A stretch of DNA of 64,000 nt from a virus (IMGVR_UViG_3300006982_000001:1-64000); one strand, 5' to 3'; positions 5,669 to 53,621 are shown, counted from the first letter of the stretch. The notes: generated from the sequence alone by a model not told the origin. Translations and numbers: made by a program.

Positions 5669-5705
5669 TGGGTAGCGGTATTAGACGTAAGTGGAGATAA
5701 GAAAG

Positions 5706-6191
5706 ATGTCGACCACCCAATCCACCAGCGACCGACAGTACGAGAACGTGACCGAAGCCGAGTTCGACGCGTTTATGGACGACCTCGCGAAGTACGAGAA
5801 GTCCGTCCCCGAGAACGCCCGAGAGATCGTCTACGACATCCCGACGCCGTCCGACACGCTCGTCGTGCGAGTCTGGAGTACCCTCGTCCGAGGGAACAGC
5901 CGAGCGAAGGGTCAGGACGCGATCCGCGCGGTCGTCTGGGACACGGAGGAGGAACAGCCGATCGGTGGCCGTGAGAAGACGCTCCGCCTCGGCCCGACCG
6001 ACAGCAACCCCGAGGGCTGGAAGGGCAACCTGCGCCCGAAGATCGTCGACCTCGTGAGCAGCTGGCGAGACTACGATAAGGAGTGCCCGGAGTGTGGAAA
6101 CCGAATGGCTCTGCGAGAGCCGAGCCGGGGCGACGATTGGGACGCCTTCTGGGGCTGCACCAACTACCCGAACTGCCAGCACTCGGAGTGA
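5706..6191 (+). CDS. DNA-binding protein with C-terminal topoisomerase-type C4 zinc finger
   Basis: CPECGNRMALREPSRGDDWDAFWGCTNYPNCQH; GTGGAGATAAGAAAG leader. Confidence 0.65.
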   Translation: MSTTQSTSDRQYENVTEAEFDAFMDDLAKYEKSVPENAREIVYDIPTPSDTLVVRVWSTLVRGNSRAKGQDAIRAVVWDTEEEQPIGGREKTLRLGPTDSNPEGWKGNLRPKIVDLVSSWRDYDKECPECGNRMALREPSRGDDWDAFWGCTNYPNCQHSE

Positions 6192-6354
6192 CAGAGTGCG
6201 GAGCTGAAGTTTAGGCCCGGTGCCTGATTTCGGTAAGGAAAGCGCGTCGAGCAGGCCGATTCCGTCTCAGAGGCCCGTCTGTTTTTAAGTAGGCTATCTT
6301 CTGGATTCGTTAGCACTAACTCCCGAGTCCGAGTCTGGAGCCGATAGAGAGACA

Positions 6355-6366
6355 TAAAGATTTATA
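6355..6366 (+). promoter_or_regulatory. BRE/TATA promoter core
   Basis: TAAAGATTTATA; 38 nt to ATG 6399. Confidence 0.6.
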
Positions 6367-6398
6367 TCCAAGCGTATCCAAGAGACGAGCGCAGACCG

Positions 6399-6896
6399 AT
6401 GACCGACACAAGAACGCTCCACGTTGAACGGAGCACGAGTACGGCGCACCGACTCCACCACTACGACGGTGTCTGTGGGAACGTCCACGGGCATAATATG
6501 AAGTGGGAAGCAGAGGTCGAGGTGTCGATGGAAGAAGTGGGTGACGACAATATGCCGCTGGATCTGAAAGACGTCAGCAGTCTCATCGACGACACGGATC
6601 ACGCGATCCTTCTGAACGTCAACGACAAGCTGCTGGACGCGCTCGCTGACGAGGTTCTGCTGGATGAGTCCCAGAGCCTCGAGCAGATGCGTCAGAAGGA
6701 TCAGAGCGGCATCTACGTCGACTCAGGGCAGATCCCTCTGCTCGGAGAGGCGTACCTGTTCCACGGCGACCCCACCTGCGAGGTGATGGCTCAGTGGATG
6801 GCTGACCGGATTCAGAACATCGACGCCGTCGTGGACGTGGAGATCATCGTCTACGAGACGGACAAGTACGGGATCGAGACTTCGAGCTGGGGCTGA
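6399..6896 (+). CDS. queD: 6-carboxy-5,6,7,8-tetrahydropterin synthase (QueD, PTPS family)
   Basis: STAHRLHHYDGVCGNVHGHNMKWEAEVEV (CxxxHGH motif), T-fold-like length. Confidence 0.85.
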   Translation: MTDTRTLHVERSTSTAHRLHHYDGVCGNVHGHNMKWEAEVEVSMEEVGDDNMPLDLKDVSSLIDDTDHAILLNVNDKLLDALADEVLLDESQSLEQMRQKDQSGIYVDSGQIPLLGEAYLFHGDPTCEVMAQWMADRIQNIDAVVDVEIIVYETDKYGIETSSWG

Positions 6897-6898
6897 CG

Positions 6899-7129
6899 AT
6901 GGAGACAGACAACGCGGATCCTCTGGGCGAGGCCGTCCGAGATGGTCTGTTCTCCCTCGCGCTCGCCGCTGTCGCAGGGCTGGGCGCGTGGACGCTCCTC
7001 CCACCGATGCCCGGTGGTGAGTGGGCGATGATCATCCGCGGAGTCGTAACGCTCGTGATCGCTGGGATCGTCTTCAGTATCGCGTGGTTCATCACCGTCC
7101 TGCTGACGATGAAGGAGATGGGACTATGA
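6899..7129 (+). CDS. Small membrane protein (2 TM)
   Basis: [18 protein letters not shown] and [21 protein letters not shown]; stop overlaps queE ATG (ATGA). Confidence 0.55.
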
Positions 7130-7917
7130 CTCAGGTCAAGGTGGCCGAACAGTTCTTCAGCATACAGGGAGAGGGACCGTATGCCGGGACGCCAGCAATC
7201 TTCCTCCGCCTCGCAGGGTGCAATCTCTCCTGCGGGTGGATAGACGATCTGGATGAGTACGAGCCGGGCGACGAGCCGCAGGGAGACGCGACGTGGGTCT
7301 GCGATACGATCGACGTCTGGCGTGATCCCGAGAACACCTACGAGCCGATCGAGCTGGTCGAGGAGTGGGAGGACAGAGGGTGGTTCGACGTCCTCCAGAA
7401 CCGGGATGCGCACATCGTCCTGACCGGTGGCGAGCCGACGCTACCGAGTCACCAGATGGCGTTCTTCGACTTCTACCACACTCTGAAAGACGAGATCGAG
7501 ACGCGTCCCTTCGTGGAGGTGGAGACGAACGGGACGCAAGAGATCACCCCGTCCTTCGGAGCTGTGGTTGATCACTTCAACGTCAGCCTGAAACTCGCGA
7601 ACTCCGGGATGTCCGAGGAGCGTCGGCTTACGGACGCGGTCGATCAGTTCGTGTATATGGGCGAGGACGAGGACGACCAGATCCCGCCCGCCGTGTTCAA
7701 GTTCGTCGTCTCCTCCGAGGGCGATATGCAGGAGATCGACTACCTGATCGACGTCTGCGACATCCCCAGAGAGAAGGTGTCCCTGATGCCTGCCGGGCAG
7801 ACTCAGGAGCAGCTTCGTGAGACCTATCCCGTGGTGGCTGAGATCTGTAAAGTGAGGGGCTTCCGATTCAGCCCACGCCTTCACGTAGACGTCTGGGACG
7901 CTGCTACCGGTGTATAG
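7126..7917 (+). CDS. queE: 7-carboxy-7-deazaguanine synthase (QueE, radical SAM)
   Basis: [28 protein letters not shown]...CDT, LTGGEPT; Cys motif interrupted by 20-aa acidic insert. Confidence 0.85.
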
Positions 7918-8686
7918 ATAACACTTAACTACACCCATCAACACTTATCGAGTATGGAGAAGACGAGTATCCAGCTTTCCAAAGAGGTCCGGGATGAGCT
8001 GAAGTCTCTGGGCCAGAAAGGAGAGTCCTACGACGATATCCTACGGAGGGAGTTAGACATCGATGAGTAGTTGTCCCGCCAGTGGTTGCGATTACAATGG
8101 CACTAATCATGGTGTGAAGGTGCATTACGGACGTTCTCATGACGGGACTCTGGCAAAGACGTCTGTATGCGAGACCTGTAGGTGTGAGTATAAGATTCGG
8201 GATGGCAAATCCATCTCAGAATCGAAGTATTGTTCTCTTCCCTGTAAGAAGGCTTCTGAGGCGGGATGCAATACGCTTCAGGGATGGGCGAGAGCACGTA
8301 CAAATCGATGTCAGTGGTGCGATGAGTGGTTTGTTGCTCCACCCGCTGCTGATAGAGAGTTCTGTTCGCGAGAATGTACCGATATCCGTAGATCGGAAGA
8401 GGACATCCTGAGCGGAGACAATCATCCCCGGTGGGTAAGTGAAGAAGCCGATCGATACTGGATGTCTCAGTCGAAGGTTGAACAGGTTGTTCAGAGGGAC
8501 AAGCAATGTCAGATGTGTGGATTAAGTAACGAGGCTCACAAGGTTATGGTAAGCAATCGATTGCACATTCATCATGTGAAACCCCGACGAAAGTGCGAGT
8601 CCAGAGAGGAGGCTAATCAGCTGTCAAACCTCCTTCTTCTGTGTAGTACGTGCCATAATAGGCTCGATAACTTCATACGACAGACA
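7897..8686 (+). mobile_element. Low-GC RHH + ZnF-HNH cassette at the queE 3' end
   Basis: GC drop; queE ends ATGV*, HNH ORF ends QTGV* immediately before PRTase ATG. Confidence 0.45.
7954..8070 (+). CDS. Ribbon-helix-helix small protein, 38 aa
   Basis: MEKTSIQLSKEVRDELKSLGQKGESYDDILRRELDIDE; overlaps HNH start by 8 nt. Confidence 0.5.
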   Translation: MEKTSIQLSKEVRDELKSLGQKGESYDDILRRELDIDE

Positions 8687-8695
8687 GGGGTCTGA
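8063..8695 (+). CDS. HNH homing endonuclease with N-terminal C2H2 zinc finger
   Basis: CPASGCDYNGTNHGVKVHYGRSH; FCSRECTD; NRLHIHHVKPRR...NLLLLCSTCHNRLD. Confidence 0.85.
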   Translation: MSSCPASGCDYNGTNHGVKVHYGRSHDGTLAKTSVCETCRCEYKIRDGKSISESKYCSLPCKKASEAGCNTLQGWARARTNRCQWCDEWFVAPPAADREFCSRECTDIRRSEEDILSGDNHPRWVSEEADRYWMSQSKVEQVVQRDKQCQMCGLSNEAHKVMVSNRLHIHHVKPRRKCESREEANQLSNLLLLCSTCHNRLDNFIRQTGV

Positions 8696-8696
8696 G

Positions 8697-9164
8697 ATGG
8701 TCGAGAAAGAATACGTCGATTGGGGTGAGGCCGAGTCGGCCGCTGTCCAGATCGCCGAGGCCGCCGAGATGATCGACGACCCGGATCATATCGTAGGAGT
8801 CGCTCGGGGTGGGCTTCCGCTGGCCGTGATGGTCAGTCACGAGCTCGACCTGCCGATGACGTCCCTACGCGCGACACACTACGATGGGAAAGAACGGGAG
8901 GACGAGGTCGAGATCCATACGGATGGACTCGATCAGATCGAGGTGGGCGAAACGGTCTTGCTGGTCGACGACGTCGTCGATAGCGGACGAACGCTCCAGC
9001 GGATCACGGAGCTGTGGGATCGCTACGAGGTAGACCATCGAACCGCTGTCTGGCACGAGAAGCCCGACAGCGAGTTCAAGCCGAACGTCTCTATCTCTCA
9101 GACGGATAGCTGGATCGTCTATCCGTGGGAAGAACCGCGCACGATGAGGAACGCAGAACGATGA
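8697..9164 (+). CDS. Type I phosphoribosyltransferase (purine PRTase-like)
   Basis: PRPP loop VLLVDDVVDSGRTL; GVARGGLPLA; size of Hpt/Gpt-like enzymes. Confidence 0.75.
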   Translation: MVEKEYVDWGEAESAAVQIAEAAEMIDDPDHIVGVARGGLPLAVMVSHELDLPMTSLRATHYDGKEREDEVEIHTDGLDQIEVGETVLLVDDVVDSGRTLQRITELWDRYEVDHRTAVWHEKPDSEFKPNVSISQTDSWIVYPWEEPRTMRNAER

Positions 9165-9796
9165 GTCAAGAACCTATGACACAAGAGCACCCGGAGCAGG
9201 ATCCAGCAGAGTACCACTTCCGTCGCTTTATGGAGGAGATCGGGGTCGACCCGGACGGCGACGAGCACCTCGAGGAGACACCGAAGCGAGTCGTCCGATC
9301 CCGTCGCAACGAGCTGTTCGGTGGGAACGGTGACGATCCGGACGAGCATCTGGAGAAGACGTTCGAAGACGTCGAGCAGTACGAGGGCGACACGGGTGAA
9401 TACAGCGGAGACGCTGGCTGGGTGATCGTCGATAACATTCAGGTGGAGTCGATGTGTGCTCACCACTTCTTGCCCTTCCGCGGAGTCGCTCACGTCGGCT
9501 ACATCCCGAAGGACAAGGTCGTGGGACTGTCGAAGCTCGCGCGGGTGACGGACGGGTACGCTCGCCGGCCGCAGGTCCAAGAGCGGCTGACGAATCAAGT
9601 CGCCAACGCCGTCCACGAGAAGCTCGATCCGCTGGCGACGGCAGTAATCATTCGGTCTGAGCACTTGTGTATGACGTGCAGGGGTGTTCAAGAGCCGAAC
9701 TCCCAGACGTCGACAGTAGCGCTTCGTGGTGCTGTAAGAGAAGACGACCCTATGCGAGAAGAGTTCTACAATATCCTTAAGATGCACGAGAGCTAA
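9161..9796 (+). CDS. folE: GTP cyclohydrolase I (FolE)
   Basis: CAHHFLPFRGVAHVGYIP, GLSKLARV, RRPQVQERLTNQ; ATGA overlap with PRTase stop; last ~50 codons are low-GC. Confidence 0.9.
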   Translation: MSQEPMTQEHPEQDPAEYHFRRFMEEIGVDPDGDEHLEETPKRVVRSRRNELFGGNGDDPDEHLEKTFEDVEQYEGDTGEYSGDAGWVIVDNIQVESMCAHHFLPFRGVAHVGYIPKDKVVGLSKLARVTDGYARRPQVQERLTNQVANAVHEKLDPLATAVIIRSEHLCMTCRGVQEPNSQTSTVALRGAVREDDPMREEFYNILKMHES

Positions 9797-10528
9797 TACT
9801 CTCGTAATGGATTGTTCGAAGTGTGGTAAAAGTGTCCAGGATAGTCAGACTCTGGACGAACATCTCGAGCTTCATTCTTCGGGTGAGGGCGTCGAGTGTC
9901 AGGAGTGTGGGTGGCTATACGGTAGCGAGCGTACTCTGAAGTGCCACCATACCAAAAAGCACGGTAAGGACCCGGAGTGGACTACTTACGAGTGTGAGGA
10001 TTGTGGTGTAGAGGTGGGTCACTACTCTGGGGCTGAGGATCGTGTGAGTCGGTTTTGTAGAAGCTGCTATCAGGAACACAGATCTGCTGATACCATCGAC
10101 GTTGAGTGTGAGACTTGTGGAGCAGTTGAGTGCGTACCAGAGTACCTGAGTAGCAGGCGGTTCTGTAGTCCTCAGTGTCGTGCTGAGTGGGTTTCAGAGG
10201 AGATAGCAGGGAGAGATCATCCCAATTGGAAAGGTGGTGAGAGCCAGTACAGAGGCTCTAATTGGAATGAACAGCGTGAGAAAGCTCTAAATCGTGATGG
10301 ACATAAATGTCGTGTCTGTAGAGACGAAGAGCAGCTTATCGTCCATCATATCGTATCGTTTCATGAGTTCGATGGATTCCGTAAGGCGAACGATCTGGAG
10401 AACCTCGCAACGCTCTGTCGATTGTGCCACGGTTATCTGGAGGGTTGGATCAATCGGGAGGATTTGGGTAGACAGGGTCAGAAGACGGCCTTTGAGTTAG
10501 CTGAAGCTGAAACTCGGAGCACCTCTGT
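9640..10528 (+). mobile_element. Homing cassette: recoded folE 3' end plus ZnF-HNH gene
   Basis: GC drop from ~9640; displaced original folE end follows at 10529. Confidence 0.6.
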
Positions 10529-10532
10529 ATGA
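9807..10532 (+). CDS. HNH homing endonuclease with N-terminal C2H2 zinc finger
   Basis: CSKCGKSVQDSQTLDEHLELH; FCSPQCRAEW; HKCRVCRDEEQLIVHHIV...NLATLCRLCH. Confidence 0.85.
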   Translation: MDCSKCGKSVQDSQTLDEHLELHSSGEGVECQECGWLYGSERTLKCHHTKKHGKDPEWTTYECEDCGVEVGHYSGAEDRVSRFCRSCYQEHRSADTIDVECETCGAVECVPEYLSSRRFCSPQCRAEWVSEEIAGRDHPNWKGGESQYRGSNWNEQREKALNRDGHKCRVCRDEEQLIVHHIVSFHEFDGFRKANDLENLATLCRLCHGYLEGWINREDLGRQGQKTAFELAEAETRSTSV

Positions 10533-10663
10533 GCTGCCGGGGTGCTCAGGAGCCTCACTCGAGTACGTCCACGGCAGCCCTGCGAGGGGCCGTCCGAGAG
10601 GACGACTCGATGAAGCGCGAGTTCTACGACCTGATCCAGATGTCCGACAACGGGCGCGTGTAG
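10529..10663 (+). pseudogene. Displaced original 3' end of folE (44 codons)
   Basis: MSCRGAQEPHSSTSTAALRGAVREDDSMKREFYDLIQMSDNGRV*; 26/41 aa identical to folE residues encoded at 9671..9796; GC-rich codons. Confidence 0.8.
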
Positions 10664-10698
10664 GGCCGCGTGTACGGACCTCAGTAGAGAGCTGAGTC

Positions 10699-10748
10699 AT
10701 CCGTCGCGCAAAGGACGGATTCGCTCACAGCGCGTGTGAGCGCTTTTT
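10699..10748 (+). terminator. Two hairpins followed by T5
   Basis: atccgtc-N8-gacggat and gctcaca-gcgcg-tgtgagc then gcttttt. Confidence 0.5.
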
Positions 10749-10784
10749 AGAGGATGGTACGTGTACGACGAGAGGGTAGAGAAC

Positions 10785-10796
10785 CATAGATTTATA
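10785..10796 (+). promoter_or_regulatory. BRE/TATA promoter core
   Basis: CATAGATTTATA; 35 nt to ATG 10826. Confidence 0.6.
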
Positions 10797-10825
10797 GACT
10801 CCGATCCTCTACTGGCAGACGTAGT

Positions 10826-11527
10826 ATGGAGACAAAGACCGACCGTCAGCGAACGATGCTCCTGTTTGGCATCGTCGCCGCGTTCGTGGTATCGCTCGCG
10901 ATCTCTCAAGTGATCGCCTCAAAGCTCGCATCGTACTCACTACCGTGGTTCGGAGTCCTGCTCTACCCGGTAGGCTCGATCACCTACGCCGTCCTCTTCT
11001 TCTGCTCGGACCTGATGTCCGAGATGTTCGGGAAAAAGCGAGCGGCCTATATGGTGAACATCGGGTTCCTGATGAACTTTCTACTGCTCGCCTTCGTCTG
11101 GGGAGCTATCTTCGTCCCGAACTCTGGGGCTGGAGCGAGTCAGGGAGCCTTCGAGGAGGTGCTGACGTCGTCGACGAACATCGTCTTCGCCTCGCTCGGA
11201 GCTTACTTGATCAGCCAGAACCTCGACGTCTTCCTGTTTCACAAGATCCGTGGGATCACCGGGAAGTCGAAGCTCTGGCTCCGGAACATCGCGTCCACGG
11301 GGACGTCGCAATTGGTCGATGCGATCGCTTTCACGTCGATCGCCTATCTACTCCTGCCCGGACTGACGGGGATTGGACAGACGGTACCGATCGAGACCGC
11401 CGTGCTGATCGTGCTCGGTCAATACTTCATCGTCCTCGGAGTCGCCTTCTTGGACACGCCGGTCGTGTACGCCGTGGTCGAGGGGCTGGAGAAGTTCACT
11501 GACCTCGAGCGAGCCGACGTCGAGTAA
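10826..11527 (+). CDS. yhhQ: YhhQ/DUF165-family queuosine-precursor (preQ0/preQ1) transporter
   Basis: Multi-TM; FFCSDLMSEMFGKKRA and ASLGAYLISQNLDVFLFHKIRG...LWLRNIASTGTSQLVDAIAFTSIAY parallel E. coli YhhQ ATDLTVRIFG / ASFMAYALGQILDVHVFNRLRQ...APTASTLFGNVSDTLAFFFIAF. Confidence 0.8.
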   Translation: METKTDRQRTMLLFGIVAAFVVSLAISQVIASKLASYSLPWFGVLLYPVGSITYAVLFFCSDLMSEMFGKKRAAYMVNIGFLMNFLLLAFVWGAIFVPNSGAGASQGAFEEVLTSSTNIVFASLGAYLISQNLDVFLFHKIRGITGKSKLWLRNIASTGTSQLVDAIAFTSIAYLLLPGLTGIGQTVPIETAVLIVLGQYFIVLGVAFLDTPVVYAVVEGLEKFTDLERADVE

Positions 11528-11543
11528 TCGGTCTACCTTCTTC

Positions 11544-11555
11544 AATAGATTTATA
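11544..11555 (+). promoter_or_regulatory. BRE/TATA promoter core
   Basis: AATAGATTTATA; 34 nt to ATG 11584. Confidence 0.6.
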
Positions 11556-11583
11556 GACTTTGATACGGTAGAGGTGAGTGCTT

Positions 11584-11961
11584 ATGCCGCCACAGATTAG
11601 AACAACGTGGGCGAAGGTCAGTCTACGATTCGACGCTCACCACCGATGGGACGAAGCATTCGACGAGGTCGCTTTCCTTCAGAACGAACACCGTCACGAG
11701 TTCCACGTCACGGTACAGGTGCAGCAGTACCACGACGACCGGGACGTCGAATACATCCACCTCAAGCGCCGTCTCCAGAGCTGGATCGAGAACGAGTACC
11801 TACCCGAGGATCGGGATCTGGGTCAGAAGTCCTGCGAGATGATGGCCGAGGACATCCTCGAGAAACTGATCGAGTGGCACGGGAAGGGTCGTGCCTACCG
11901 AATCGAGGTCACGGAGGACGGAGAGAACGGAGCACTGCTCGAGGTGCCGGTCGATGAGTAA
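11584..11961 (+). CDS. Divergent PTPS/QueD-like T-fold protein lacking the catalytic Cys
   Basis: RFDAHHRW...NEHRHEFHVTVQV...SCEMMAEDI...EVTEDGENGA follows QueD layout but CxxxHGH is replaced by LQNEHRH. Confidence 0.5.
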   Translation: MPPQIRTTWAKVSLRFDAHHRWDEAFDEVAFLQNEHRHEFHVTVQVQQYHDDRDVEYIHLKRRLQSWIENEYLPEDRDLGQKSCEMMAEDILEKLIEWHGKGRAYRIEVTEDGENGALLEVPVDE

Positions 11962-28592: not shown

Positions 28593-29100
28593 AAAGATGG
28601 CGGGATATAAAGATAAAAATTGGTTAGAGCGCGAGTACGTCCAGAACAATCGTACTCAAGCTGAAATAGCTGCACAGTTCGGAGTTACTCCCGGAGCTGT
28701 TCGCTACTATACCGAGAAGTACGGATTGACGAAGGCGTGGAAAGATGAGGAGATGCTACGTGCAAAGTACGTTGATGAAGGGCTGGATGTTAGTGACATT
28801 GCTCGGGAGTTTGGGGTAGATGATGGCACGATTCTGTATTGGATGAGAGAGTATAATATTCCCAGAAGACAGGGCGGTGATCATTCACTTCCGTATGCGT
28901 CTCTGTCGATGACCGGTGAGGGCTACGAGATGTGGTGCGACGGTGAAGACCGCGTCTACGTCCATCGCTTGCTCGTGGTAGCAGAGTACGGTTTGGATGC
29001 TTTGTCGGACGACGTCCACCACCATTCAGGCATTCCGTGGGATAATCGCCCGGAGAACGTCAAGCCGATGTCCCGATCAGAGCACCAGAAAGAGCACGCG
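28566..29100 (+). mobile_element. Homing cassette: recoded thyX end plus HTH-HNH gene
   Basis: KNRLAP* encoded twice (28572..28592 low-GC, 29101..29121 GC-rich). Confidence 0.55.
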
Positions 29101-29121
29101 AAGAACCGTCTGGCACCCTGA
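28597..29121 (+). CDS. HNH homing endonuclease with two N-terminal HTH repeats
   Basis: RTQAEIAAQFGVTPGAVRYY / LDVSDIAREFGVDDGTILYW; VHRLLVVAEYG...HHHSGIPWDNRPENVKPMSRSEH; low GC. Confidence 0.8.
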   Translation: MAGYKDKNWLEREYVQNNRTQAEIAAQFGVTPGAVRYYTEKYGLTKAWKDEEMLRAKYVDEGLDVSDIAREFGVDDGTILYWMREYNIPRRQGGDHSLPYASLSMTGEGYEMWCDGEDRVYVHRLLVVAEYGLDALSDDVHHHSGIPWDNRPENVKPMSRSEHQKEHAKNRLAP

Positions 29122-32214: not shown

Positions 32215-32900
32215 GTAGGACACCGCCTTAATCTGGAGTGTGCCAAAGTGTCCCACCTGTGGTGCTGATCGGTTCGACCGTGACCGTGATATGAAGATCC
32301 ACCACAAAGCTGCTCACGACAAATCGATTGCTGAACGTGATCGTCAGACCACTGTCGTAGACTGCGATGAGTGTGGTGAAGAGACAGAGGTTCTGAAGTA
32401 CGTCGATGCCGATCATCGGTTCTGCGGGGAGGAGTGTCGTATGGATTGGTTGTCGAGGAGCAGATCTGGAGATTCTAATCCAGCAAAGGATCCGAAGGTC
32501 AGACAGCAGATCTCAGATACTCTCTCCGGACGTTCGTTATCGTCTGAACACCGGCGGAATATCTCGCAGGCTCAGAGTGGGCGTCAAGTGACGTGGAGTG
32601 ACAAACTGAAAGGGCGTCAACCAGCAGATCCGTTCCCGGAGGGTGACGAAAACCCGTCGTGGTCTGGAGGAGAACCGTATGATCCGGGTCCTCTTACTCA
32701 GAAGCAGAAAGAGCTCATCAGAGAATCGAGGGGACGTATGTGCGAGGAGTGTGGGAAGTTGTCCGAGGAGCAGCCAAAGAAGATGTCTGTTCATCACATC
32801 GATAACGATGTCACCAATAACGATGCAGAAAATCTCAAACTGCTCTGTAATTCGTGCCACGCTAAGGAGCACAACTGATCCGGGACTAACACTCCCGGCT
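32215..32900 (+). mobile_element. Free-standing low-GC ZnF-HNH gene between the HExxH and VWA genes
   Basis: GC drop; no flanking duplication seen. Confidence 0.4.
32240..32878 (+). CDS. HNH homing endonuclease with N-terminal C2H2 zinc finger
   Basis: CPTCGADRFDRDRDMKIHHKAAH; FCGEECRMDW; MSVHHIDNDVTNNDAENLKLLCNSCH; GTG start. Confidence 0.85.
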   Translation: MPKCPTCGADRFDRDRDMKIHHKAAHDKSIAERDRQTTVVDCDECGEETEVLKYVDADHRFCGEECRMDWLSRSRSGDSNPAKDPKVRQQISDTLSGRSLSSEHRRNISQAQSGRQVTWSDKLKGRQPADPFPEGDENPSWSGGEPYDPGPLTQKQKELIRESRGRMCEECGKLSEEQPKKMSVHHIDNDVTNNDAENLKLLCNSCHAKEHN

Positions 32901-39250: not shown

Positions 39251-39324
39251 GGGATCGTAGTGTAGTGGTCTATCACCCCTCGTTTGGGACGAGGAGATCG
39301 CTGGTTCGAATCCAGCCGATCCCA
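39251..39324 (+). tRNA. tRNA-Pro: tRNA-Pro(TGG)
   Basis: gggatcg/cgatccc; cctcg-ttTGGga-cgagg; gctgg-ttcgaat-ccagc. Confidence 0.9.
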
Positions 39325-39328
39325 CTCT

Positions 39329-39401
39329 GCGCGTGGTTGATCCAACGGCAAGACAGGGGCCTTCCAAGCCTCAGATCCCGGTTCGATTCCGGGGCCGCGC
39401 A
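39329..39401 (+). tRNA. tRNA-Gly: tRNA-Gly(TCC)
   Basis: ggggc-ctTCCaa-gcctc; cccgg-ttcgatt-ccggg; acceptor base has mismatches, ends +/-1. Confidence 0.75.
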
Positions 39402-39405
39402 TCGC

Positions 39406-39481
39406 ACTCCCGGAGTCCCCGCTGGCGAGGGACGCTGGACTTTGGATCCAGAGATCGCCGGTTCGATTCCGGCCGGGAGGA
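39406..39481 (+). tRNA. tRNA-Gln: tRNA-Gln(TTG)
   Basis: ctgga-ctTTGga-tccag; gccgg-ttcgatt-ccggc; A1 opposite G72. Confidence 0.8.
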
Positions 39482-39484
39482 TGA

Positions 39485-39559
39485 ACGGGGGTAGCGCAGT
39501 CCGGTCGACGCACTCGGCCGATAACCGAGGTGAGGCAGGTTCGAATCCTGTCCCCCGTA
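39485..39559 (+). tRNA. tRNA-Ile: tRNA-Ile(GAT), C at position 33
   Basis: acggggg/cccccgt; ctcgg-ccGATaa-ccgag; gcagg-ttcgaat-cctgt. Confidence 0.8.
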
Positions 39560-39562
39560 TGA

Positions 39563-39635
39563 TGGTGCGTAGATCAGCTGGTAGATCGTCCCGCTCACAT
39601 CGGGGAGGTCGCAGGTTCGAGTCCTGCCGTACCAA
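39563..39635 (+). tRNA. tRNA-Val: tRNA-Val(CAC)
   Basis: tggtgcg/cgtacca; tcccg-ctCACat-cgggg; gcagg-ttcgagt-cctgc. Confidence 0.9.
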
Positions 39636-39637
39636 TT

Positions 39638-39710
39638 GGGGACGTGGTGTAGCCCGCTATCACACGCGCCTCCAGAGCGCGAGAGAGGGGTTCAAATCCC
39701 TTCGTCCCCA
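39638..39710 (+). tRNA. tRNA-Trp: tRNA-Trp(CCA), intron-less
   Basis: ggggacg/cgtcccc; cgcgc-ctCCAga-gcgcg. Confidence 0.9.
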
Positions 39711-39714
39711 TACG

Positions 39715-39789
39715 GGGCACATAAGCTCAGCTGGACAGAGCACCCGGCTTCTAACCGGGATGTCGGCCGTTCAAATCGGTCTGTGCCCA
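39715..39789 (+). tRNA. tRNA-Arg: tRNA-Arg(TCT)
   Basis: gggcaca/tgtgccc; cccgg-ctTCTaa-ccggg; ggccg-ttcaaat-cggtc. Confidence 0.9.
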
Positions 39790-39795
39790 TCGAGA

Positions 39796-39868
39796 GCCCA
39801 CGTAGCTCAGTGAACAGAGCACCGGTCTTCGAAATTGGGTGTCGCAGGTTTGAATCCTGTCGTGGGCG
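39796..39868 (+). tRNA. tRNA-Arg: tRNA-Arg(TCG)
   Basis: gcccacg/cgtgggc; ccggt-ctTCGaa-attgg; gcagg-tttgaat-cctgt. Confidence 0.85.
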
Positions 39869-39871
39869 TAG

Positions 39872-39944
39872 GTCGAGGTGGCAGAGTGGTGAACGCACCC
39901 GCCTGCAGAGCGGGAAAACGTCGGTTCGATTCCGACCCTCGACT
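39872..39944 (+). tRNA. tRNA-Cys: tRNA-Cys(GCA)
   Basis: gtcgagg/cctcgac; cccgc-ctGCAga-gcggg; gtcgg-ttcgatt-ccgac. Confidence 0.9.
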
Positions 39945-39948
39945 CTCT

Positions 39949-40022
39949 GGGACGGTAGCTCAGCTCGGGAGAGCGCGGCGCTGAAGACGTCGTCTGCCTC
40001 GGTTCAAATCCGAGCCGTCCCA
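39949..40022 (+). tRNA. tRNA-Phe: tRNA-Phe(GAA)
   Basis: gggacgg/ccgtccc; cggcg-ctGAAga-cgtcg; ctcgg-ttcaaat-ccgag. Confidence 0.9.
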
Positions 40023-40024
40023 CT

Positions 40025-40099
40025 GCCGGGATGGTCTAATACAGAAAGATTGGAGGCTTGTGATGCCTCAGACGCGGGTGCTAAGTCCCGCTCCCGGCC
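40025..40099 (+). tRNA. tRNA-His: tRNA-His(GTG) with non-canonical D and T loops
   Basis: gccggga/tcccggc; gaggc-ttGTGat-gcctc; D-loop aatacagaa (no GG); T-loop tgctaagt (8 nt, no TTC); AT-rich. Confidence 0.7.
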
Positions 40100-40129
40100 C
40101 TTATCTATCTGGAGATCGTAGAGCGGACG

Positions 40130-40519
40130 ATGGCTCACCAAGATTTGTTCCACTATCAGGCCCGCATCGAGCGGATCGTAGACGGTGATACATACGACGT
40201 CGTGATCGACATCGGTTTCAAGCTCTCGAAAGAGATCAGGATCCGTCTGAACGACGTCAACACCGCCGAGACCTACGGAGTCAAGAAGGAATCCGAGGAG
40301 TACCAGAATGGGATCGCTCACAAGACCTTCGTCGAGGAGTGGCTCCACAAAGCACAAGCCGACTCCGAGCACGAGTTCCCCGTTCTGATGCGGACTCACA
40401 AGCACGAGAAGGGGAAGTATGGTCGCTACGTGGCCGACGTGGTCCGCCGATCCGATGGCGCTGTCCTCTCCGAGGATCTGCTCGAGGAGTTCGACACGGT
40501 CGAGAAGGTGGACTACTGA
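40130..40519 (+). CDS. Staphylococcal-nuclease (SNase/thermonuclease)-like nuclease
   Basis: RIVDGDTYDVVID...IRIRLNDVNTAETYG...GKYGRYVADV. Confidence 0.75.
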   Translation: MAHQDLFHYQARIERIVDGDTYDVVIDIGFKLSKEIRIRLNDVNTAETYGVKKESEEYQNGIAHKTFVEEWLHKAQADSEHEFPVLMRTHKHEKGKYGRYVADVVRRSDGAVLSEDLLEEFDTVEKVDY

Positions 40520-40529
40520 CCCGCAGACC

Positions 40530-40541
40530 CATAGATTTATA
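40530..40541 (+). promoter_or_regulatory. BRE/TATA promoter of tRNA operon 2
   Basis: CATAGATTTATA; 37 nt before tRNA-Asp. Confidence 0.65.
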
Positions 40542-40572
40542 TTCATCGGTGCTATACGGCAAGACGCGATGA

Positions 40573-40645
40573 GCCGAGCTGGTGTAGTCAGGAAACATCG
40601 TGCCCTGTCACGGCGCGGCCGCGAGTTCAAATCTCGCGCTCGGCG
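40573..40645 (+). tRNA. tRNA-Asp: tRNA-Asp(GTC)
   Basis: gccgagc/gctcggc; gtgcc-ctGTCac-ggcgc; gcgag-ttcaaat-ctcgc. Confidence 0.9.
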
Positions 40646-40648
40646 TGC

Positions 40649-40723
40649 AGCGGGATGGGATAGCCAGATCACTCCGCCGGGTTCATATCCCGGAGAACGC
40701 AGGTTCAAATCCTGCTCCCGCTA
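40649..40723 (+). tRNA. tRNA-iMet: tRNA-Met(CAT), initiator-type
   Basis: A1-U72 (agcggga/tcccgct); anticodon stem ccGGG-ttCATat-CCCgg with three G-C pairs next to loop. Confidence 0.8.
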
Positions 40724-40870
40724 TGCGCCTCTCCGGCGCTCACTAAGTAGGAGTTCGGTTCCAACCACCGGGCAGGTGGCTGTCACACGCTCCTGACCCG
40801 ACCCCCGAATCCCATAACGAGGATAGAAAACGCTCGCAAGGTCCGGACGCTCCCGGACTACAATCCTCGC
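40724..40870 (+). other. 147-nt tRNA-free, hairpin-rich spacer inside tRNA operon 2 (candidate ncRNA or decayed tRNA)
   Basis: gcgcc-tctcc-ggcgc; ccacc-gggca-ggtgg; cgaggat...gtccgg-acgctc-ccggac...atcctcg. Confidence 0.3.
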
Positions 40871-40944
40871 GGGCTCGTAGTTCAGCTCGGTAGAACCCCC
40901 GCTTCGCAAGTGGGAGGCCGCCGGTTCAAGTCCGGCCGAGTCCA
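40871..40944 (+). tRNA. tRNA-Ala: tRNA-Ala(CGC)
   Basis: gggctcg/cgagtcc with G3-U70; cccgc-ttCGCaa-gtggg; gccgg-ttcaagt-ccggc. Confidence 0.9.
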
Positions 40945-40955
40945 TCGCTCATCGC

Positions 40956-41034
40956 GGGCAGGTAGCAAAGGCGATGCGCAGCCTGCACCGGGCCTTTAAC
41001 CCGGCTATCGTGGGTTCAATTCCCACCCTGCCCT
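40956..41034 (+). tRNA. tRNA-Lys: tRNA-Lys(TTT), enlarged D-loop, C33
   Basis: gggcagg/cctgccc; ccggg-ccTTTaa-cccgg; gtggg-ttcaatt-cccac; 79 nt. Confidence 0.7.
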
Positions 41035-41042
41035 CTCAGCGA

Positions 41043-41129
41043 GCTCCCGTGGGGTAGCGGACACACGCTCTCAGGCAATCCTACCGGCCTTTCGAGCCGG
41101 TGACGTCGGTTCGACTCCGACCGGGAGCA
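41043..41129 (+). tRNA. tRNA-Glu: tRNA-Glu(TTC) with 22-nt D-loop
   Basis: gctcccg/cgggagc; ccggc-ctTTCga-gccgg; gtcgg-ttcgact-ccgac; D-stem gggt/atcc encloses 22 nt; 87 nt. Confidence 0.7.
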
Positions 41130-41173
41130 TCAGCGGCAGAGCAAAGAGGACGTCTGTCCTACCGCTCTGGTGA

Positions 41174-41248
41174 CGGCAGGTAGCTCAGAGGCCGCAAGCG
41201 ACGGACTGTAGATCCGTGTCGACGGAGGTTCAATTCCTTCCCTGCCGA
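41174..41248 (+). tRNA. tRNA-Tyr: tRNA-Tyr(GTA)
   Basis: C1-G72 (cggcagg/cctgccg); acgga-ctGTAga-tccgt; ggagg-ttcaatt-ccttc. Confidence 0.85.
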
Positions 41249-41249
41249 T

Positions 41250-41405
41250 TTGACCATCGAGGAGTGTCCTAACTGCGGGGAGCAATCCCCGGAAACGGCT
41301 CAGGCTTTACGAGCTCGGACGCTCCTCTGTTGTTCTTCGACGTGGATCCCCGGACGTGGAGTCGTGATCACTCCGGCGGGTGACGAGCTTCCGTTGGATG
41401 AATAG
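41250..41405 (+). CDS. Possible small CPxCG zinc-finger protein (TTG start, 51 aa)
   Basis: TIEECPNCGEQ...; stop is TAG of the next promoter 12-mer; weak. Confidence 0.25.
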   Translation: MTIEECPNCGEQSPETAQALRARTLLCCSSTWIPGRGVVITPAGDELPLDE

Positions 41406-41412
41406 ATTTATA
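41401..41412 (+). promoter_or_regulatory. BRE/TATA promoter of tRNA operon 3
   Basis: AATAGATTTATA; 103 nt before tRNA-Asn. Confidence 0.65.
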
Positions 41413-41509
41413 CGGTATGCTCCTCTCTGTCCGAGTAGACGATGCCCCACCCGAATCGATCGTCATCGTTGCTATCCTCTCTTCTTAGTCGATAGTGCAA
41501 CGGTGGCGT

Positions 41510-41583
41510 GCCGGGTAGACTCGCTTGGTGCGGGTGCCTGACTGTTAATCAGGATGCGCGAGGTTCGATCCCTCGACCCGGCG
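41510..41583 (+). tRNA. tRNA-Asn: tRNA-Asn(GTT)
   Basis: gccgggt/acccggc; cctga-ctGTTaa-tcagg; cgagg-ttcgatc-cctcg. Confidence 0.9.
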
Positions 41584-41626
41584 TAAACCGTTGCTCTCGT
41601 GTGTAGATAGCAGACTCCTATACAGA

Positions 41627-41711
41627 GGGTGGATGCCCGAGTCAGGTCGAAGGGGTCCGGCTCAGGACCGGATGCTTAGTGTCTTCGCAGGTTCAAATCC
41701 TGCTCCGCCCA
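41627..41711 (+). tRNA. tRNA-Leu: tRNA-Leu(CAG)
   Basis: gggtgga/tccgccc; tccgg-ctCAGga-ccgga; long variable arm; gcagg-ttcaaat-cctgc. Confidence 0.85.
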
Positions 41712-41714
41712 TAG

Positions 41715-41799
41715 GGTGCGCATCGGGGATCTGGCTACCCGACCCGCCTGCTACGCGGGATCCCTCCGTGGACACTCGGTTCGATTCCGAGGCGCACCG
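41715..41799 (+). tRNA. tRNA-Ser: tRNA-Ser(GCT)
   Basis: ggtgcgc/gcgcacc; cccgc-ctGCTac-gcggg; long variable arm; ctcgg-ttcgatt-ccgag. Confidence 0.85.
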
Positions 41800-41803
41800 T
41801 CGG

Positions 41804-41887
41804 GCCGACGTTACCGTAGTCAGGCCAACGGACTCGTTTGGAGGACGAGAGCCGAGAGGTTCCCCGGTTCAAATCCGGGCGTCGGCG
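41804..41887 (+). tRNA. tRNA-Ser: tRNA-Ser(GGA)
   Basis: gccgacg/cgtcggc; ctcgt-ttGGAgg-acgag; long variable arm; cccgg-ttcaaat-ccggg. Confidence 0.85.
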
Positions 41888-41890
41888 TCT

Positions 41891-41975
41891 GGTGGGATGG
41901 CGGAAGTGGACGATCGCGCCTGTCTTGAAAACAGGTACCCGAGAGGGTTTCAGGGTTCGAATCCCTGTCCCACCG
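41891..41975 (+). tRNA. tRNA-Ser: tRNA-Ser(TGA)
   Basis: ggtggga/tcccacc; cctgt-ctTGAaa-acagg; long variable arm; caggg-ttcgaat-ccctg. Confidence 0.85.
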
Positions 41976-41978
41976 CTC

Positions 41979-42080: not shown

Positions 42081-42610
42081 TTAACCTCTTTACTCAGTAG
42101 GTCTTAATTTCTTGTATGACGTCTGAATGTCCTACTTGTGGTGAGGGGTTTGGTAGTCAGAAGGCGATGAAGATACACCATAAAGCGAAACACGGGCAAA
42201 GTTTAGCAACAGAGAAATCTACTTGTCTGTCGTGCGATTCCGAGTTTTCCTACTACCCCTCAAATCGATCTGGAGAATTATGTCACGAGTGTAGTGATAA
42301 ACACTCCGATGAGTGGTCTGAACATATGATGAGTCTGAAAGGGCCTGAAGATATAGATGGTCGTTCTTCCGAAGATAGTACCCTACACAAGCGTCGGAGG
42401 ATTCAGCAGATCAAATTGGGGGTAGGGTGTTCTGAGTGTGGATACAACGAACATCCTGCTGCTCTGGATTTCCACCACTTAGAAAACAAAGATCGCAGTA
42501 TTACGAGGTTGGTATCTGGTAACTTCAAATGGAGCAGGGTTCTAACAGAACTTCAAAAGTGCGATGTTCTATGTAGCAATTGTCATAGAGTGATTCATTC
42601 ATCTGCATAG
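42081..42610 (+). mobile_element. ZnF-HNH homing cassette adjoining tRNA-Leu(TAA) (left boundary may lie inside the tRNA)
   Basis: Low GC; followed by an orphan tRNA 3' fragment with nearly the same acceptor strand. Confidence 0.55.
42116..42610 (+). CDS. HNH homing endonuclease with N-terminal C2H2 zinc finger
   Basis: CPTCGEGFGSQKAMKIHHKAKH; LDFHHLENKD...CDVLCSNCH; low GC. Confidence 0.85.
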   Translation: MTSECPTCGEGFGSQKAMKIHHKAKHGQSLATEKSTCLSCDSEFSYYPSNRSGELCHECSDKHSDEWSEHMMSLKGPEDIDGRSSEDSTLHKRRRIQQIKLGVGCSECGYNEHPAALDFHHLENKDRSITRLVSGNFKWSRVLTELQKCDVLCSNCHRVIHSSA

Positions 42611-52842: not shown

Positions 52843-53289
52843 ATGGGTGACGGAGAGTTCGTCGTCTGGTGTCAGTGCGGTTTCGAGAAGTGGTACGATA
52901 CCCACGCCTCGGCCAGCGCCGCGCAGGCTGGTCACACGGGATGTGAGTCAGACCGTCCGACGTGGATCGATACCGAAGAGTCCTACGAGGAGGACACTCC
53001 GCAGACGATGGCTGAAGCGACGATGTCCGGTCTGGCTCTGTCAGCACTCCGTGCTCTCATCGACCGGTACGAACCAGATCGAGAGGGTGCGCCCATCGAA
53101 CGATTTGACGATCGGTGGGAGTTGGTGCAGACAGCTCGGCGGAAGGGCGTCGTCTACCTCGCTGGGGACAGACTCTACGACACGGGACAGGAGAGACTTG
53201 AGGGTGCGGAGGACTACGAGGAGGCTCGTCAGGCTGCACGGGACGCAGCTCGTGACCGTGGACACGAGATCGAGGAGCTGGAGCAGTGA
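52843..53289 (+). CDS. Hypothetical protein
   Basis: First ATG in ORF 52798; CQCG...HTGC. Confidence 0.5.
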   Translation: MGDGEFVVWCQCGFEKWYDTHASASAAQAGHTGCESDRPTWIDTEESYEEDTPQTMAEATMSGLALSALRALIDRYEPDREGAPIERFDDRWELVQTARRKGVVYLAGDRLYDTGQERLEGAEDYEEARQAARDAARDRGHEIEELEQ

Positions 53290-53621
53290 TCAGCCTCTAC
53301 CTGCTCACGGCGCACCTGATCGGGGACTTCCCTCTGCAACCAGATTGGATGGCCGCTGAGAAGCTCGACAGTCGGTCTGTAAGGGCGAGGCACGTCATCA
53401 GGTACTCTCTACCGTTCATCCCACTCCTCGCGCTCACGTCGCCGCTGAACGGGCTGACGTTCATCGTGAGTAATGGAGTCGTTCACTACCTCGTGGACAG
53501 TCGCCGGCGGGCCGAGCCGAAGGACCACTGGTCACCTCCGGAGATGTGGGTCTGGTTCATCGACCAGATCATCCACCTTACCCAGATCACCGTCCTCGGG
53601 ATAGTAGTCTTCGGGTTCTAA
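53286..53621 (+). CDS. DUF3307-like membrane protein (GTG start)
   Basis: LLTAHLIGDFPLQPDWM; several TM segments. Confidence 0.55.
   Translation: MISLYLLTAHLIGDFPLQPDWMAAEKLDSRSVRARHVIRYSLPFIPLLALTSPLNGLTFIVSNGVVHYLVDSRRRAEPKDHWSPPEMWVWFIDQIIHLTQITVLGIVVFGF

Follow-up and report, generated by a model that had tools for sequence, protein, structure and literature searches.

A DpdL-type 7-deazaguanine precursor cluster with an embedded purine phosphoribosyltransferase gene in a haloarchaeal tailed virus

According to the current view, every 7-deazaguanine modification of DNA is introduced post-replicatively, by a DpdA transglycosylase. Cellulophaga phage phiST and other phages that encode FolE, QueD and QueE, and that lack QueC, carry DpdL, a QueD paralogue with the signature LxxxHRHxF in place of the CxxxHGH of QueD, which was proposed to decarboxylate 7-carboxy-7-deazaguanine (CDG) to 7-deazaguanine, the base found as 2'-deoxy-7-deazaguanosine (dDG) in phiST DNA (Cui, Hutinet and colleagues, NAR 2023, PMC10516641). 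Haloarcula virus HVTV-1 has been proven to carry preQ1 in its DNA, in which 30% of the guanines are replaced (passages of a 2019 paper; PMC10516641). A related set of enzymes is used outside DNA modification in Streptomyces tubercidicus, whose tubercidin pathway comprises TubC, TubA and TubB (GTP cyclohydrolase I, 6-carboxytetrahydropterin (CPH4) synthase and a QueE-like enzyme), the CDG-specific phosphoribosyltransferase (PRTase) TubE and the UbiD-type decarboxylase TubF; ToyH of toyocamycin biosynthesis is listed as a TubE homologue (PMC6112128). In the present study, a 64,000-nucleotide stretch of viral DNA (IMGVR_UViG_3300006982_000001:1-64000, hereafter referred to as the window) was analyzed, with emphasis on a gene cluster at positions 6399-11961 of the order QueD-QueE-HNH-PRTase-FolE-HNH-YhhQ-DpdL (Table 1). 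With a probability of about one half, this region is a module that provides the precursor for DNA modification with 7-deazaguanine, in which the PRTase would recycle guanine and support the supply of GTP.

The window originates from a haloarchaeal tailed virus related to HVTV-1, with strongly acidic proteins. Among cultured viruses, its closest relatives are HVTV-1, HCTV-1 and HCTV-5 of Haloarcula (Druskaviridae), and identities to HVTV-1 were 60% for FolE, 54% for QueE and 47% for the DNA polymerase; a megablast search of GenBank phages with the window yielded no nucleotide-level matches. The database record of a PRTase protein identical to that of the window (P0088) places it on a contig of 104,118 bp, which indicated a genome size of ca. 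104 kb, of which ca. 40 kb lie outside the window.

Of the three enzymes of the core pathway, FolE scored above the cut-offs of both PF01227 (198.6 bits, cut-off 27) and NF006826 (198 bits, cut-off 162). QueD, 42% identical to its HVTV-1 counterpart, reached 55 bits with TIGR03367, below the cut-off of 89, and showed the sequence CGNVHGH at residues 26-32 (nucleotides 6474-6494), which fits CxxxHGH. QueE aligned over its full length with HVTV-1 gene 73 (QueE) and matched five NCBIfam QueE models (E=1e-18 to 3e-10), all under their cut-offs, while no Pfam matches were found; its cysteine motif (CNLSC...C) has an unusual spacing of C32-x3-C36-x22-C59. An earlier interpretation made from the DNA sequence alone (hereafter the sequence-only reading) had named six genes, all of which were recovered at the same positions on the + strand. 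Its motifs for QueD (CGNVHGH), FolE (CAHH and QERLT) and a second T-fold protein (LQNEHRH) were likewise confirmed, as was, from the junction sequence, the ATGA overlap of the PRTase gene and folE at 9161-9164. Combined action of FolE, QueD and QueE would turn GTP into CDG.

The second T-fold protein, a QueD-like protein without the motif cysteine, is by its sequence a member of the DpdL family. Its LQNEHRHEF (residues 32-40) matches LxxxHRHxF, and this signature was present in the window protein and in 87 of 87 database homologues, which share 17 invariant residues. The protein is homologous to DpdL of phages phiST and ACP17 and, as published for DpdL, co-occurs with FolE, QueD and QueE in the absence of QueC. 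It matched the Pfam PTPS family with E=1e-4, and its AlphaFold2 model (pLDDT 94.8) is a T-fold, for which Foldseek returned E. coli QueD (4NTK) as best match and also PTPS entries (probability 1.0). Identification as a degenerate QueD or a QueF-like protein was ruled out by the DpdL signature. The sequence-only reading had correctly seen a Cys-less QueD paralogue, without recognizing it as the DpdL described in 2023. At an E-value of 1e-10 or better, the DpdL family comprised 2,880 representatives at 50% identity. No DpdL was found in cultured archaeal viruses in the homologue search; the window thus extends this pathway variant to archaeal viruses, and would be the first DpdL-type 7-deazaguanine cluster from such viruses.

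These results indicated that the core of the cluster belongs to the DpdL/dDG branch, a pathway variant that is already known and here occurs in a host domain new to it. The missing QueC, which in the sequence-only reading had suggested salvage, is explained by DpdL without invoking a salvage route: DpdL would decarboxylate CDG to 7-deazaguanine, which would make QueC superfluous, and the predicted DNA base is dDG, as in phiST. Haloarchaea make archaeosine from preQ0, and an alternative role of the cluster could be to provide more precursor for archaeosine (G15) in tRNAs of the host or in the 21 tRNAs encoded by the virus, via host QueC, ArcTGT and ArcS. The presence of a tRNA array in the window would fit such a role, and passages of the 2019 paper raised the possibility that DpdA-less phages boost queuosine precursors for host tRNA. 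It is nevertheless considered very improbable, since DpdL would divert CDG away from preQ0 and no QueC is encoded in the window, and since 30% of the DNA guanines are replaced in HVTV-1, whose FolE-QueD-QueE set is homologous, and dDG is present in the DNA of the DpdL phage phiST.

In the majority of other viruses, an uncharacterised domain of ca. 170 amino acids with the motif FxGIExEGP..G..TLFVPG ... YFGAG lies next to DpdL (L030:10536-12212, L137:10353-12306, L017:6550-8689). At least six representatives (P0290, P0304, P0306, P0325, P0332 and P0407) have it fused to DpdL, and a GT-B-like protein of ca. 350 amino acids often follows DpdL; fusions of DpdL to an NAD epimerase/dehydratase, MazG or a PIG-L-like domain were also observed. 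No relatives of the partner domain were found in Pfam, PHROG or PDB, while the GT-B-like family had no Pfam or PHROG relatives and gave marginal PDB matches to GT4 enzymes (E=0.04). DpdL also has an epimerase or MazG as a companion in some cases. The window clade lacks these as well as the PIG-L-like domain. The companion proteins may indicate that the reaction of DpdL involves more than simple decarboxylation, and this context adds to the uncertainty on the final DNA base of the window clade. An apparent mutual exclusion, in haloviruses, of the PRTase and the combination of partner domain and GT-B-like protein was dropped as evidence, since the two configurations correspond to two clades (FolE about 80% versus 60-65% identical) and bacterial phages carry both.

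The PRTase gene was found to be a widespread, virus-specific companion of CDG genes, in viruses of bacteria as well as of archaea. In IMG/VR, all 21 loci with a relative of the PRTase had FolE within 10 kb, usually together with QueE and either DpdL or QueC. An unbiased metagenome scan detected CDG-pathway genes in 60 of the best 80 PRTase loci, and in 41 of the 47 loci of at least 5 kb, with a median distance to FolE or QueE of ca. 1 kb. Among cellular PRTase relatives (archaea, Chloroflexi), none of 80 loci had a CDG-gene neighbour. Two unverified faecal scaffolds with a PRTase relative showed no CDG genes in the flank examined. Full-text literature searches retrieved no papers that discuss a PRTase in the 7-deazaguanine pathway; the word 'phosphoribosyl' is absent from PMC10516641, and passages of the 2019 paper retrieved with the term 'ribosyl' do not mention a PRTase.

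Among named phages, PRTase homologues occurred in four groups, represented by phiST and its kin, immuto, MaInes and BUCT-ZZ01. Gene orders were QueD-QueE-..-PRT-FolE-MazG-DpdA3-DpdN-TMP kinase-QueF-PolA in Flavobacterium phage immuto (PRT, PRTase; TMP, thymidine monophosphate), QueE-PRT-x-QueD-FolE-..-DpdL in Synechococcus phage BUCT-ZZ01, and RNR-dNMP kinase-FolE-PRT in Brevundimonas phage MaInes (RNR, ribonucleotide reductase; dNMP, deoxynucleoside monophosphate), in which both RNR subunits, the dNMP kinase and FolE are encoded directly upstream of the PRTase. In phiST, the PRTase gene (gp064) lies ca. 18 kb from dpdL, directly upstream of a dNMP-kinase-like gene and with the RNR large subunit two genes downstream. 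DpdA proteins were annotated in immuto (DpdA3), detected with a hidden Markov model (HMM) in MaInes (DpdA3, E=4e-6) and represented in BUCT-ZZ01 by a tRNA-guanine transglycosylase (TGT)-like protein. Phage phiST encodes DpdA3, and in both phiST and immuto 100% of G is replaced (PMC10516641). End products of the PRTase-bearing clusters differ: DpdL and dDG in phiST, BUCT-ZZ01 and the window, QueC in MaInes, and QueC with QueF and fdPreQ1 in immuto. As these products (dDG, preQ0, fdPreQ1) are not shared, the purine that the clusters have in common is guanine or GTP.

Distribution of the PRTase among DpdL viruses was not uniform. No homologue was found by tblastn in ACP17 and PA5oct, both DpdL phages, nor in Campylobacter phages, of which CP220 has fully modified DNA (PMC10516641). 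Three haloviral contigs (L030, L034 and L137) carry the QueD-QueE-FolE-DpdL core without PRTase and without YhhQ, which indicated that both are accessory. In many uncultured bacterial phages, a gene for a HIT-family protein (PF01230) was observed immediately downstream of the PRTase gene (L017:10384-10830 and 19 further metagenome loci), a neighbour that points to nucleotide chemistry around the PRTase.

Based on its sequence and structural model, the PRTase appears to be an ordinary small 6-oxopurine PRTase. Conservation extends to the phosphoribosyl pyrophosphate (PRPP) loop VLLVDDVVDSGRT, with the Asp that corresponds to the catalytic base, to Lys122 and to the purine-stacking motif WIVYPWE(E); invariant residues were R37, G38, G39, D91, D95, T99, K122, W139, P143 and W144. 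Identity was 33% to the purine PRTase of P. horikoshii (PH0095, PDB 1VDM; E=2e-17) and 30% to HGXPRT of S. solfataricus (PDB 4Z1O; E=5e-14), with 7KL6 and 1A95 as other near solved structures and H. pylori XGHPRT and E. coli XGPRT as remoter relatives. The AlphaFold2 model (pLDDT 87) had 1VDM as its best Foldseek match (TM score 0.8). Since all NCBIfam equivalog models scored under their cut-offs, the substrate class was left unassigned. Nor could this class be read from motifs in alignments of viral and cellular PRTases, in which the haloviral enzymes resemble cellular ones; many phage PRTases lack the Lys, a difference that is uninterpretable without structures. TubE is likewise an ordinary-looking purine PRTase, and is nonetheless CDG-specific (PMC6112128).

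Neither QueC, QueF nor DpdA of any known subfamily was detected in the 64 kb, either by Pfam searches of concatenated open reading frames (ORFs) or by PHROG searches of unannotated large ORFs, and tblastn of the window with HVTV-1 QueC, QueF and DpdA4 gave no matches. Pfam hmmscan misses DpdA3 and fam7 TGT-like proteins even in phages that encode them, and custom profiles were therefore built for both families, with uncultured phages as the source of the DSGG-motif TGT-like profile. The window had no matches to PF01702, PF20314 (DUF6610), the DpdA3 HMM or the DSGG-motif TGT-like HMM; HVTV-1 gene 69 (DpdA4), used as positive control, scored 2.7e-56 on PF20314. Comparison by hhalign gave a maximum probability of 3.5% for a transglycosylase in the window, a scan for the DSGG motif was also negative, and no DpdA occurred in up to 10 kb upstream of the polymerase gene in contigs L134, L135, L137 and L034. 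QueC and QueF were likewise not seen next to the cluster in seven haloviral relatives. The observation in the sequence-only reading that no QueC or DpdA was in view holds for all 64 kb; the profile searches for QueC, QueF and DpdA/TGT which it had proposed as a check covered this part of the genome of ca. 104 kb and found none of them.

As no DpdA was found, the insertion step is unaccounted for. Insertion into DNA would need a transglycosylase, which may be encoded in the remaining ca. 40 kb, be too divergent for detection, or be supplied by the host. In a specific form of the last option, the virus would make 7-deazaguanine, a DpdA homologue or ArcTGT of the host would insert it, and PRTase and YhhQ would be generic auxiliary metabolic genes. 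Haloarcula vallismortis has a DpdA homologue, host insertion was proposed for HVTV-1 before DpdA4 was found (passages of the 2019 paper), and the lack of a detectable viral DpdA in the window would be consistent with it. However, every virus so far shown to have 7-deazaguanine DNA encodes its own DpdA (PMC10516641), and the host enzyme would have to accept 7-deazaguanine rather than preQ0. Host insertion is accordingly regarded as rather improbable, although less so than a role in tRNA modification.

In the preferred interpretation, a precursor module with guanine recycling, the PRTase would turn free guanine into GMP, from which GTP for FolE would be formed. Guanine would originate from breakdown of host nucleic acids and from DNA, from which it would be expelled at each base exchange. 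A guanine PRTase would both recycle the purine skeleton and remove a base that competes with 7-deazaguanine. With one guanine freed per base exchange and one GTP spent per 7-deazaguanine, the reaction would close the loop. This interpretation is supported by the differing end products of PRTase-bearing clusters, by the DpdA of representatives from all four named phage groups, by the dispensability of the gene in sister haloviruses and by the normal 6-oxopurine-type motifs of the enzyme. The sequence-only reading had offered a boost of GTP supply as a fallback; here, it is judged likelier than the salvage branch that was then favoured.

Several observations weigh against guanine recycling. The PRTase gene lies between queE and folE and overlaps the folE start, and placement inside a biosynthetic operon usually marks an enzyme that acts on a pathway intermediate. 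Its sequence is compatible both with a guanine PRTase and with a 7-deazapurine PRTase. Apart from the 64 kb of the window, DpdA was also absent from the 8-21 kb examined around the cluster in each of seven haloviral relatives (contigs L030, L032, L034, L035, L037, L134 and L137), and in HVTV-1 the DpdA4 gene (gene 69, DUF6610) directly follows folE, whereas the window encodes no DUF6610 protein. The window clade is also devoid of two companions that DpdL has in other viruses, the ca. 170-amino-acid partner domain and the GT-B-like protein. Finally, activity of DpdL is undemonstrated, and co-expression of DpdL and DpdA in E. coli yielded no dDG (PMC10516641).

Some of these observations, in particular the lack of a DpdA in the window or beside the cluster in its relatives and the absence of dDG upon expression of DpdL and DpdA alone, favour a nucleotide-level, pre-replicative route that resembles tubercidin biosynthesis. 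In this route, the PRTase would couple CDG or 7-deazaguanine to PRPP, DpdL would decarboxylate the base or the nucleotide, and the resulting 7-deaza-GMP would become 7-deaza-dGTP through kinases and ribonucleotide reductase encoded by host or virus. Incorporation of 7-deaza-dGTP by the family-B DNA polymerase of the virus would then make DpdA unnecessary, and YhhQ would in addition import 7-deazapurine bases for the same PRTase. Tubercidin biosynthesis provides a precedent with the same gene logic, decarboxylation after ribosylation and no QueC (PMC6112128). The embedding of the PRTase gene between queE and folE with an ATGA overlap, a QueE-PRT-FolE order that recurs in immuto and in many uncultured phages, would fit this route, as would the restriction of the linkage to viruses, the full replacement of G in phiST and immuto, and the proximity of the PRTase gene to genes for dNMP kinase and RNR in phiST and MaInes. 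Moreover, in a comparison of synteny with HVTV-1, PRTase, YhhQ and DpdL take the place of QueC, QueF and DpdA4.

Other results argue against the nucleotide-level route. The PRTase is missing from the three sister contigs mentioned above and, according to tblastn, from ACP17, PA5oct and the Campylobacter phages. Representatives of all four named groups of PRTase phages encode DpdA, and the PRTase also accompanies QueC and QueF clusters, whose enzymes use free bases. The PRTase has the motifs of an ordinary 6-oxopurine enzyme, and the window encodes no dNMP kinase, RNR or dGTP-clearing MazG, while ca. 40 kb of the genome are outside it. On balance, the nucleotide-level route was considered unlikely, yet the most serious of the alternatives, and guanine recycling was given about twice its weight. 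The more specific claim that a pre-replicative pathway starts with the viral PRTase, with 7-deaza-dGTP made and polymerized directly, is slightly more doubtful. Phosphoribosylation of imported bases, as suggested in the sequence-only reading, gains from the linkage of PRTase and CDG genes in viruses and from the tubercidin precedent, but is not established in view of the sister haloviruses without PRTase and YhhQ and the DpdA of PRTase phages; the salvage or nucleotide-level idea is thus retained as a live minority hypothesis.

In related haloviruses, a weak nucleoside 2-deoxyribosyltransferase-family protein and deoxynucleoside kinase (dNK)/thymidylate-kinase-like proteins were observed near the polymerase and RFC genes (L134:1583-1984, L030:482-1093 and L135:10003-10605). 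These nucleotide-level enzymes could handle a modified base or nucleoside; neither type was found in the window.

The YhhQ protein, for which TIGR00697 gave 126 bits against a cut-off of 51, has at least five hydrophobic segments. E. coli YhhQ, of the Vut_1 family, is an importer of preQ0 and preQ1; the viral protein is distant from it (NF008406, 48 bits against a cut-off of 252), and its nearest cellular relatives are in Halobacteriales (44-49% identity), which indicated that the gene was probably captured from the host lineage. Its occurrence in sister viruses is patchy, with yhhQ present in the window, L032 and L037 and absent from L035. As an accessory gene from haloarchaea, it would import free 7-deazapurine bases. 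YhhQ homologues in some phages were already noted in passages of the 2019 paper.

The dDG branch of 7-deazaguanine DNA modification rests on DpdL, which is unvalidated and whose reconstitution failed, and the locus described here extends this branch to archaeal viruses. The recurrent PRTase is an overlooked component of the pathway and represents a testable gap in the current model. It is present in the two model phages with fully replaced guanine. If the PRTase prefers guanine, it would form part of a loop of guanine recycling by which large-scale base exchange becomes affordable. If, instead, it prefers CDG or 7-deazaguanine, the view that insertion is always post-replicative would be overturned. 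Under a pre-replicative route, DNA modification in the haloviral clade would proceed with no DpdA at all, and the PRTase could be the missing factor behind the failed reconstitution of DpdL and could underlie the complete replacement of G in phiST and immuto. DNA with 7-deaza-dG resists many restriction enzymes, which makes the pathway of biotechnological interest.

Several features of the cluster were not listed in the sequence-only reading: two HNH genes, a remnant of the folE 3' end, an ORF of 76 amino acids and a DUF7557 ORF. The 76-amino-acid ORF, for which no family matches were found in Pfam, overlaps the queE start by ATGA, and the same gene was called in contig L002. Codon usage of the first HNH gene is atypical; it was dropped by a gene caller trained on the long ORFs of the window, and this position is without a gene in the sister contigs L035 and L037. 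The folE remnant duplicates 50 codons from the 3' end of folE, with 74% nucleotide identity to the intact copy. It is the trace that a homing event at the SEHLCM codons left in folE. Besides the second HNH gene, four HNH-type ORFs with atypical or weak codon usage were observed in the window (the first HNH gene, 28597-29121, 32240-32878 and 42116-42610), as well as a Zn-finger ORF without an HNH match (2271-2837). In L137, a more distant DpdL halovirus, a 624-amino-acid QueE contains an intein (L137:15467-17341; Pfam PT-HINT and Intein_splicing, both weak matches), which would be another selfish element in genes of the same pathway.

Genes for YhhQ and DpdL are each preceded by an identical 15-mer, ATAGATTTATAGACT. 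Its core, ATAGATTTATA, occurred 20 times in the window and exclusively on the + strand, compared with 0.42 copies expected by chance. At the sites that were read, it is located just upstream of an ORF (sites include 10786, 11545, 12630, 16249, 29371 and 30874), and the motif is probably a virus-specific TATA-type promoter. No copy occurs between 2020 and 10786, which implies that queD, queE, the PRTase gene and folE must be transcribed differently.

Every confidently coding ORF of the window is on the + strand. In order, the window encodes a family-B DNA polymerase (cut by the window start), the RFC large subunit, the 7-deazaguanine cluster, dCTP deaminase and ThyX; these are followed by AAA/vWA proteins, an array of 21 tRNAs, terminase, portal and the major capsid protein. 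A gene for the zinc-ribbon protein is also found directly upstream of queD in contigs L030, L032, L035, L037 and L135. The dense tRNA array (39251-41976), upstream of the terminase gene, includes GUN-anticodon tRNAs for His, Asp, Asn and Tyr, and two further ARAGORN calls were doubtful. A DUF3307 membrane protein is encoded among the structural genes (53286-53621), and an 866-amino-acid protein encoded after the portal gene (47274-49874) has an N-terminal DUF192 domain. An Rfam search of 5-13 kb of the window detected no RNA families. JGI contigs from samples 3300007038 and 3300007029 showed 100% and 98% nucleotide identity, respectively, to part of the cluster. Contig L002 (JGI 3300007038) is 100% identical to 5691-7727 and 7876-9396 of the window and lacks the intervening 148 bp (7728-7875), which cuts QueE short after ca. 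200 residues; this contig reflects either a QueE-defective population variant or an assembly artefact.

Table 1. Features in and next to the 7-deazaguanine cluster, with their positions in the window, strand and supporting evidence.
Feature	Position	Strand	Evidence
166-aa protein with C-terminal Top1-type zinc ribbon	5691..6191	+	PF01396, E=1e-10
queD, 6-carboxytetrahydropterin (CPH4) synthase	6399..6896	+	PF01242, E=2e-17; TIGR03367, E=9e-15
76-aa hydrophobic (membrane) ORF between queD and queE	6899..7129	+	ORF list
queE, radical-SAM 7-carboxy-7-deazaguanine (CDG) synthase	7126..7917	+	Similarity to HVTV-1 QueE
38-aa DUF7557 ORF, immediately upstream of first HNH gene	7954..8070	+	PF24434 on contigs L002 and L003
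HNH homing endonuclease, between queE and PRTase gene	8063..8695	+	PF01844, E=8e-9
Type I purine (6-oxopurine-type) PRTase	8697..9164	+	PF00156, E=5e-22
folE, GTP cyclohydrolase I, complete copy	9161..9796	+	PF01227, E=7.5e-59
Second HNH homing endonuclease, 3' end of folE	9807..10532	+	PF01844, E=1e-8
folE C-terminus remnant, second copy (SEHLCMSCRG...)	10514..10663	+	tblastn to HVTV-1 FolE residues 155-199, E=7e-11
Promoter-like motif ATAGATTTATAGACT, upstream of yhhQ	10786..10800	+	Motif count
YhhQ/Vut_1 family 7-deazapurine (queuosine-precursor) transporter	10826..11527	+	PF02592, E=4e-42
Promoter-like 15-mer, identical copy, upstream of dpdL	11545..11559	+	Sequence read
dpdL, Cys-less QueD paralogue, proposed CDG decarboxylase	11584..11961	+	LQNEHRHEF at nt 11677-11703

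Compared with known systems, the cluster shares with phiST the combination of FolE, QueD, QueE and a DpdL with LxxxHRHxF, the absence of QueC and a PRTase homologue (gp064 in phiST). It differs from phiST in that its virus has an archaeal host, in that no DpdA3 or other DpdA is in view, in the presence of YhhQ inside the cluster and in the position of the PRTase gene, which overlaps folE in the window and is located ca. 18 kb from dpdL in phiST. Loci of the ACP17 type have the DpdL partner domain and the GT-B-like protein, both of which are absent from the window. With HVTV-1, the cluster has in common its genomic position, between the RFC and AAA/vWA genes, and the queD-queE-folE order, while the HVTV-1 module reads QueF ... 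QueC-QueD-QueE-FolE-DpdA4. In terms of gene-cluster logic, the tubercidin cluster is similar in its GTP cyclohydrolase I, CPH4 synthase, CDG synthase, purine-type PRTase and decarboxylase and in its lack of QueC. Its decarboxylase is, however, of the UbiD type instead of the T-fold DpdL, its GMP-reductase/Nudix tailoring functions have no equivalent in the window, and its product is a secreted nucleoside antibiotic rather than DNA. The viral YhhQ belongs to the same family as E. coli YhhQ (TIGR00697), but is remote from it, with haloarchaeal proteins as nearest relatives. Finally, the viral PRTase resembles archaeal 6-oxopurine PRTases (1VDM, 4Z1O) in its fold, 30-33% identity, PRPP loop, Lys122 and C-terminal W-I-V-x-P-W motif, and differs from them in its genomic context: the cellular genes are never found beside CDG genes (0/80), whereas the viral genes almost always are.

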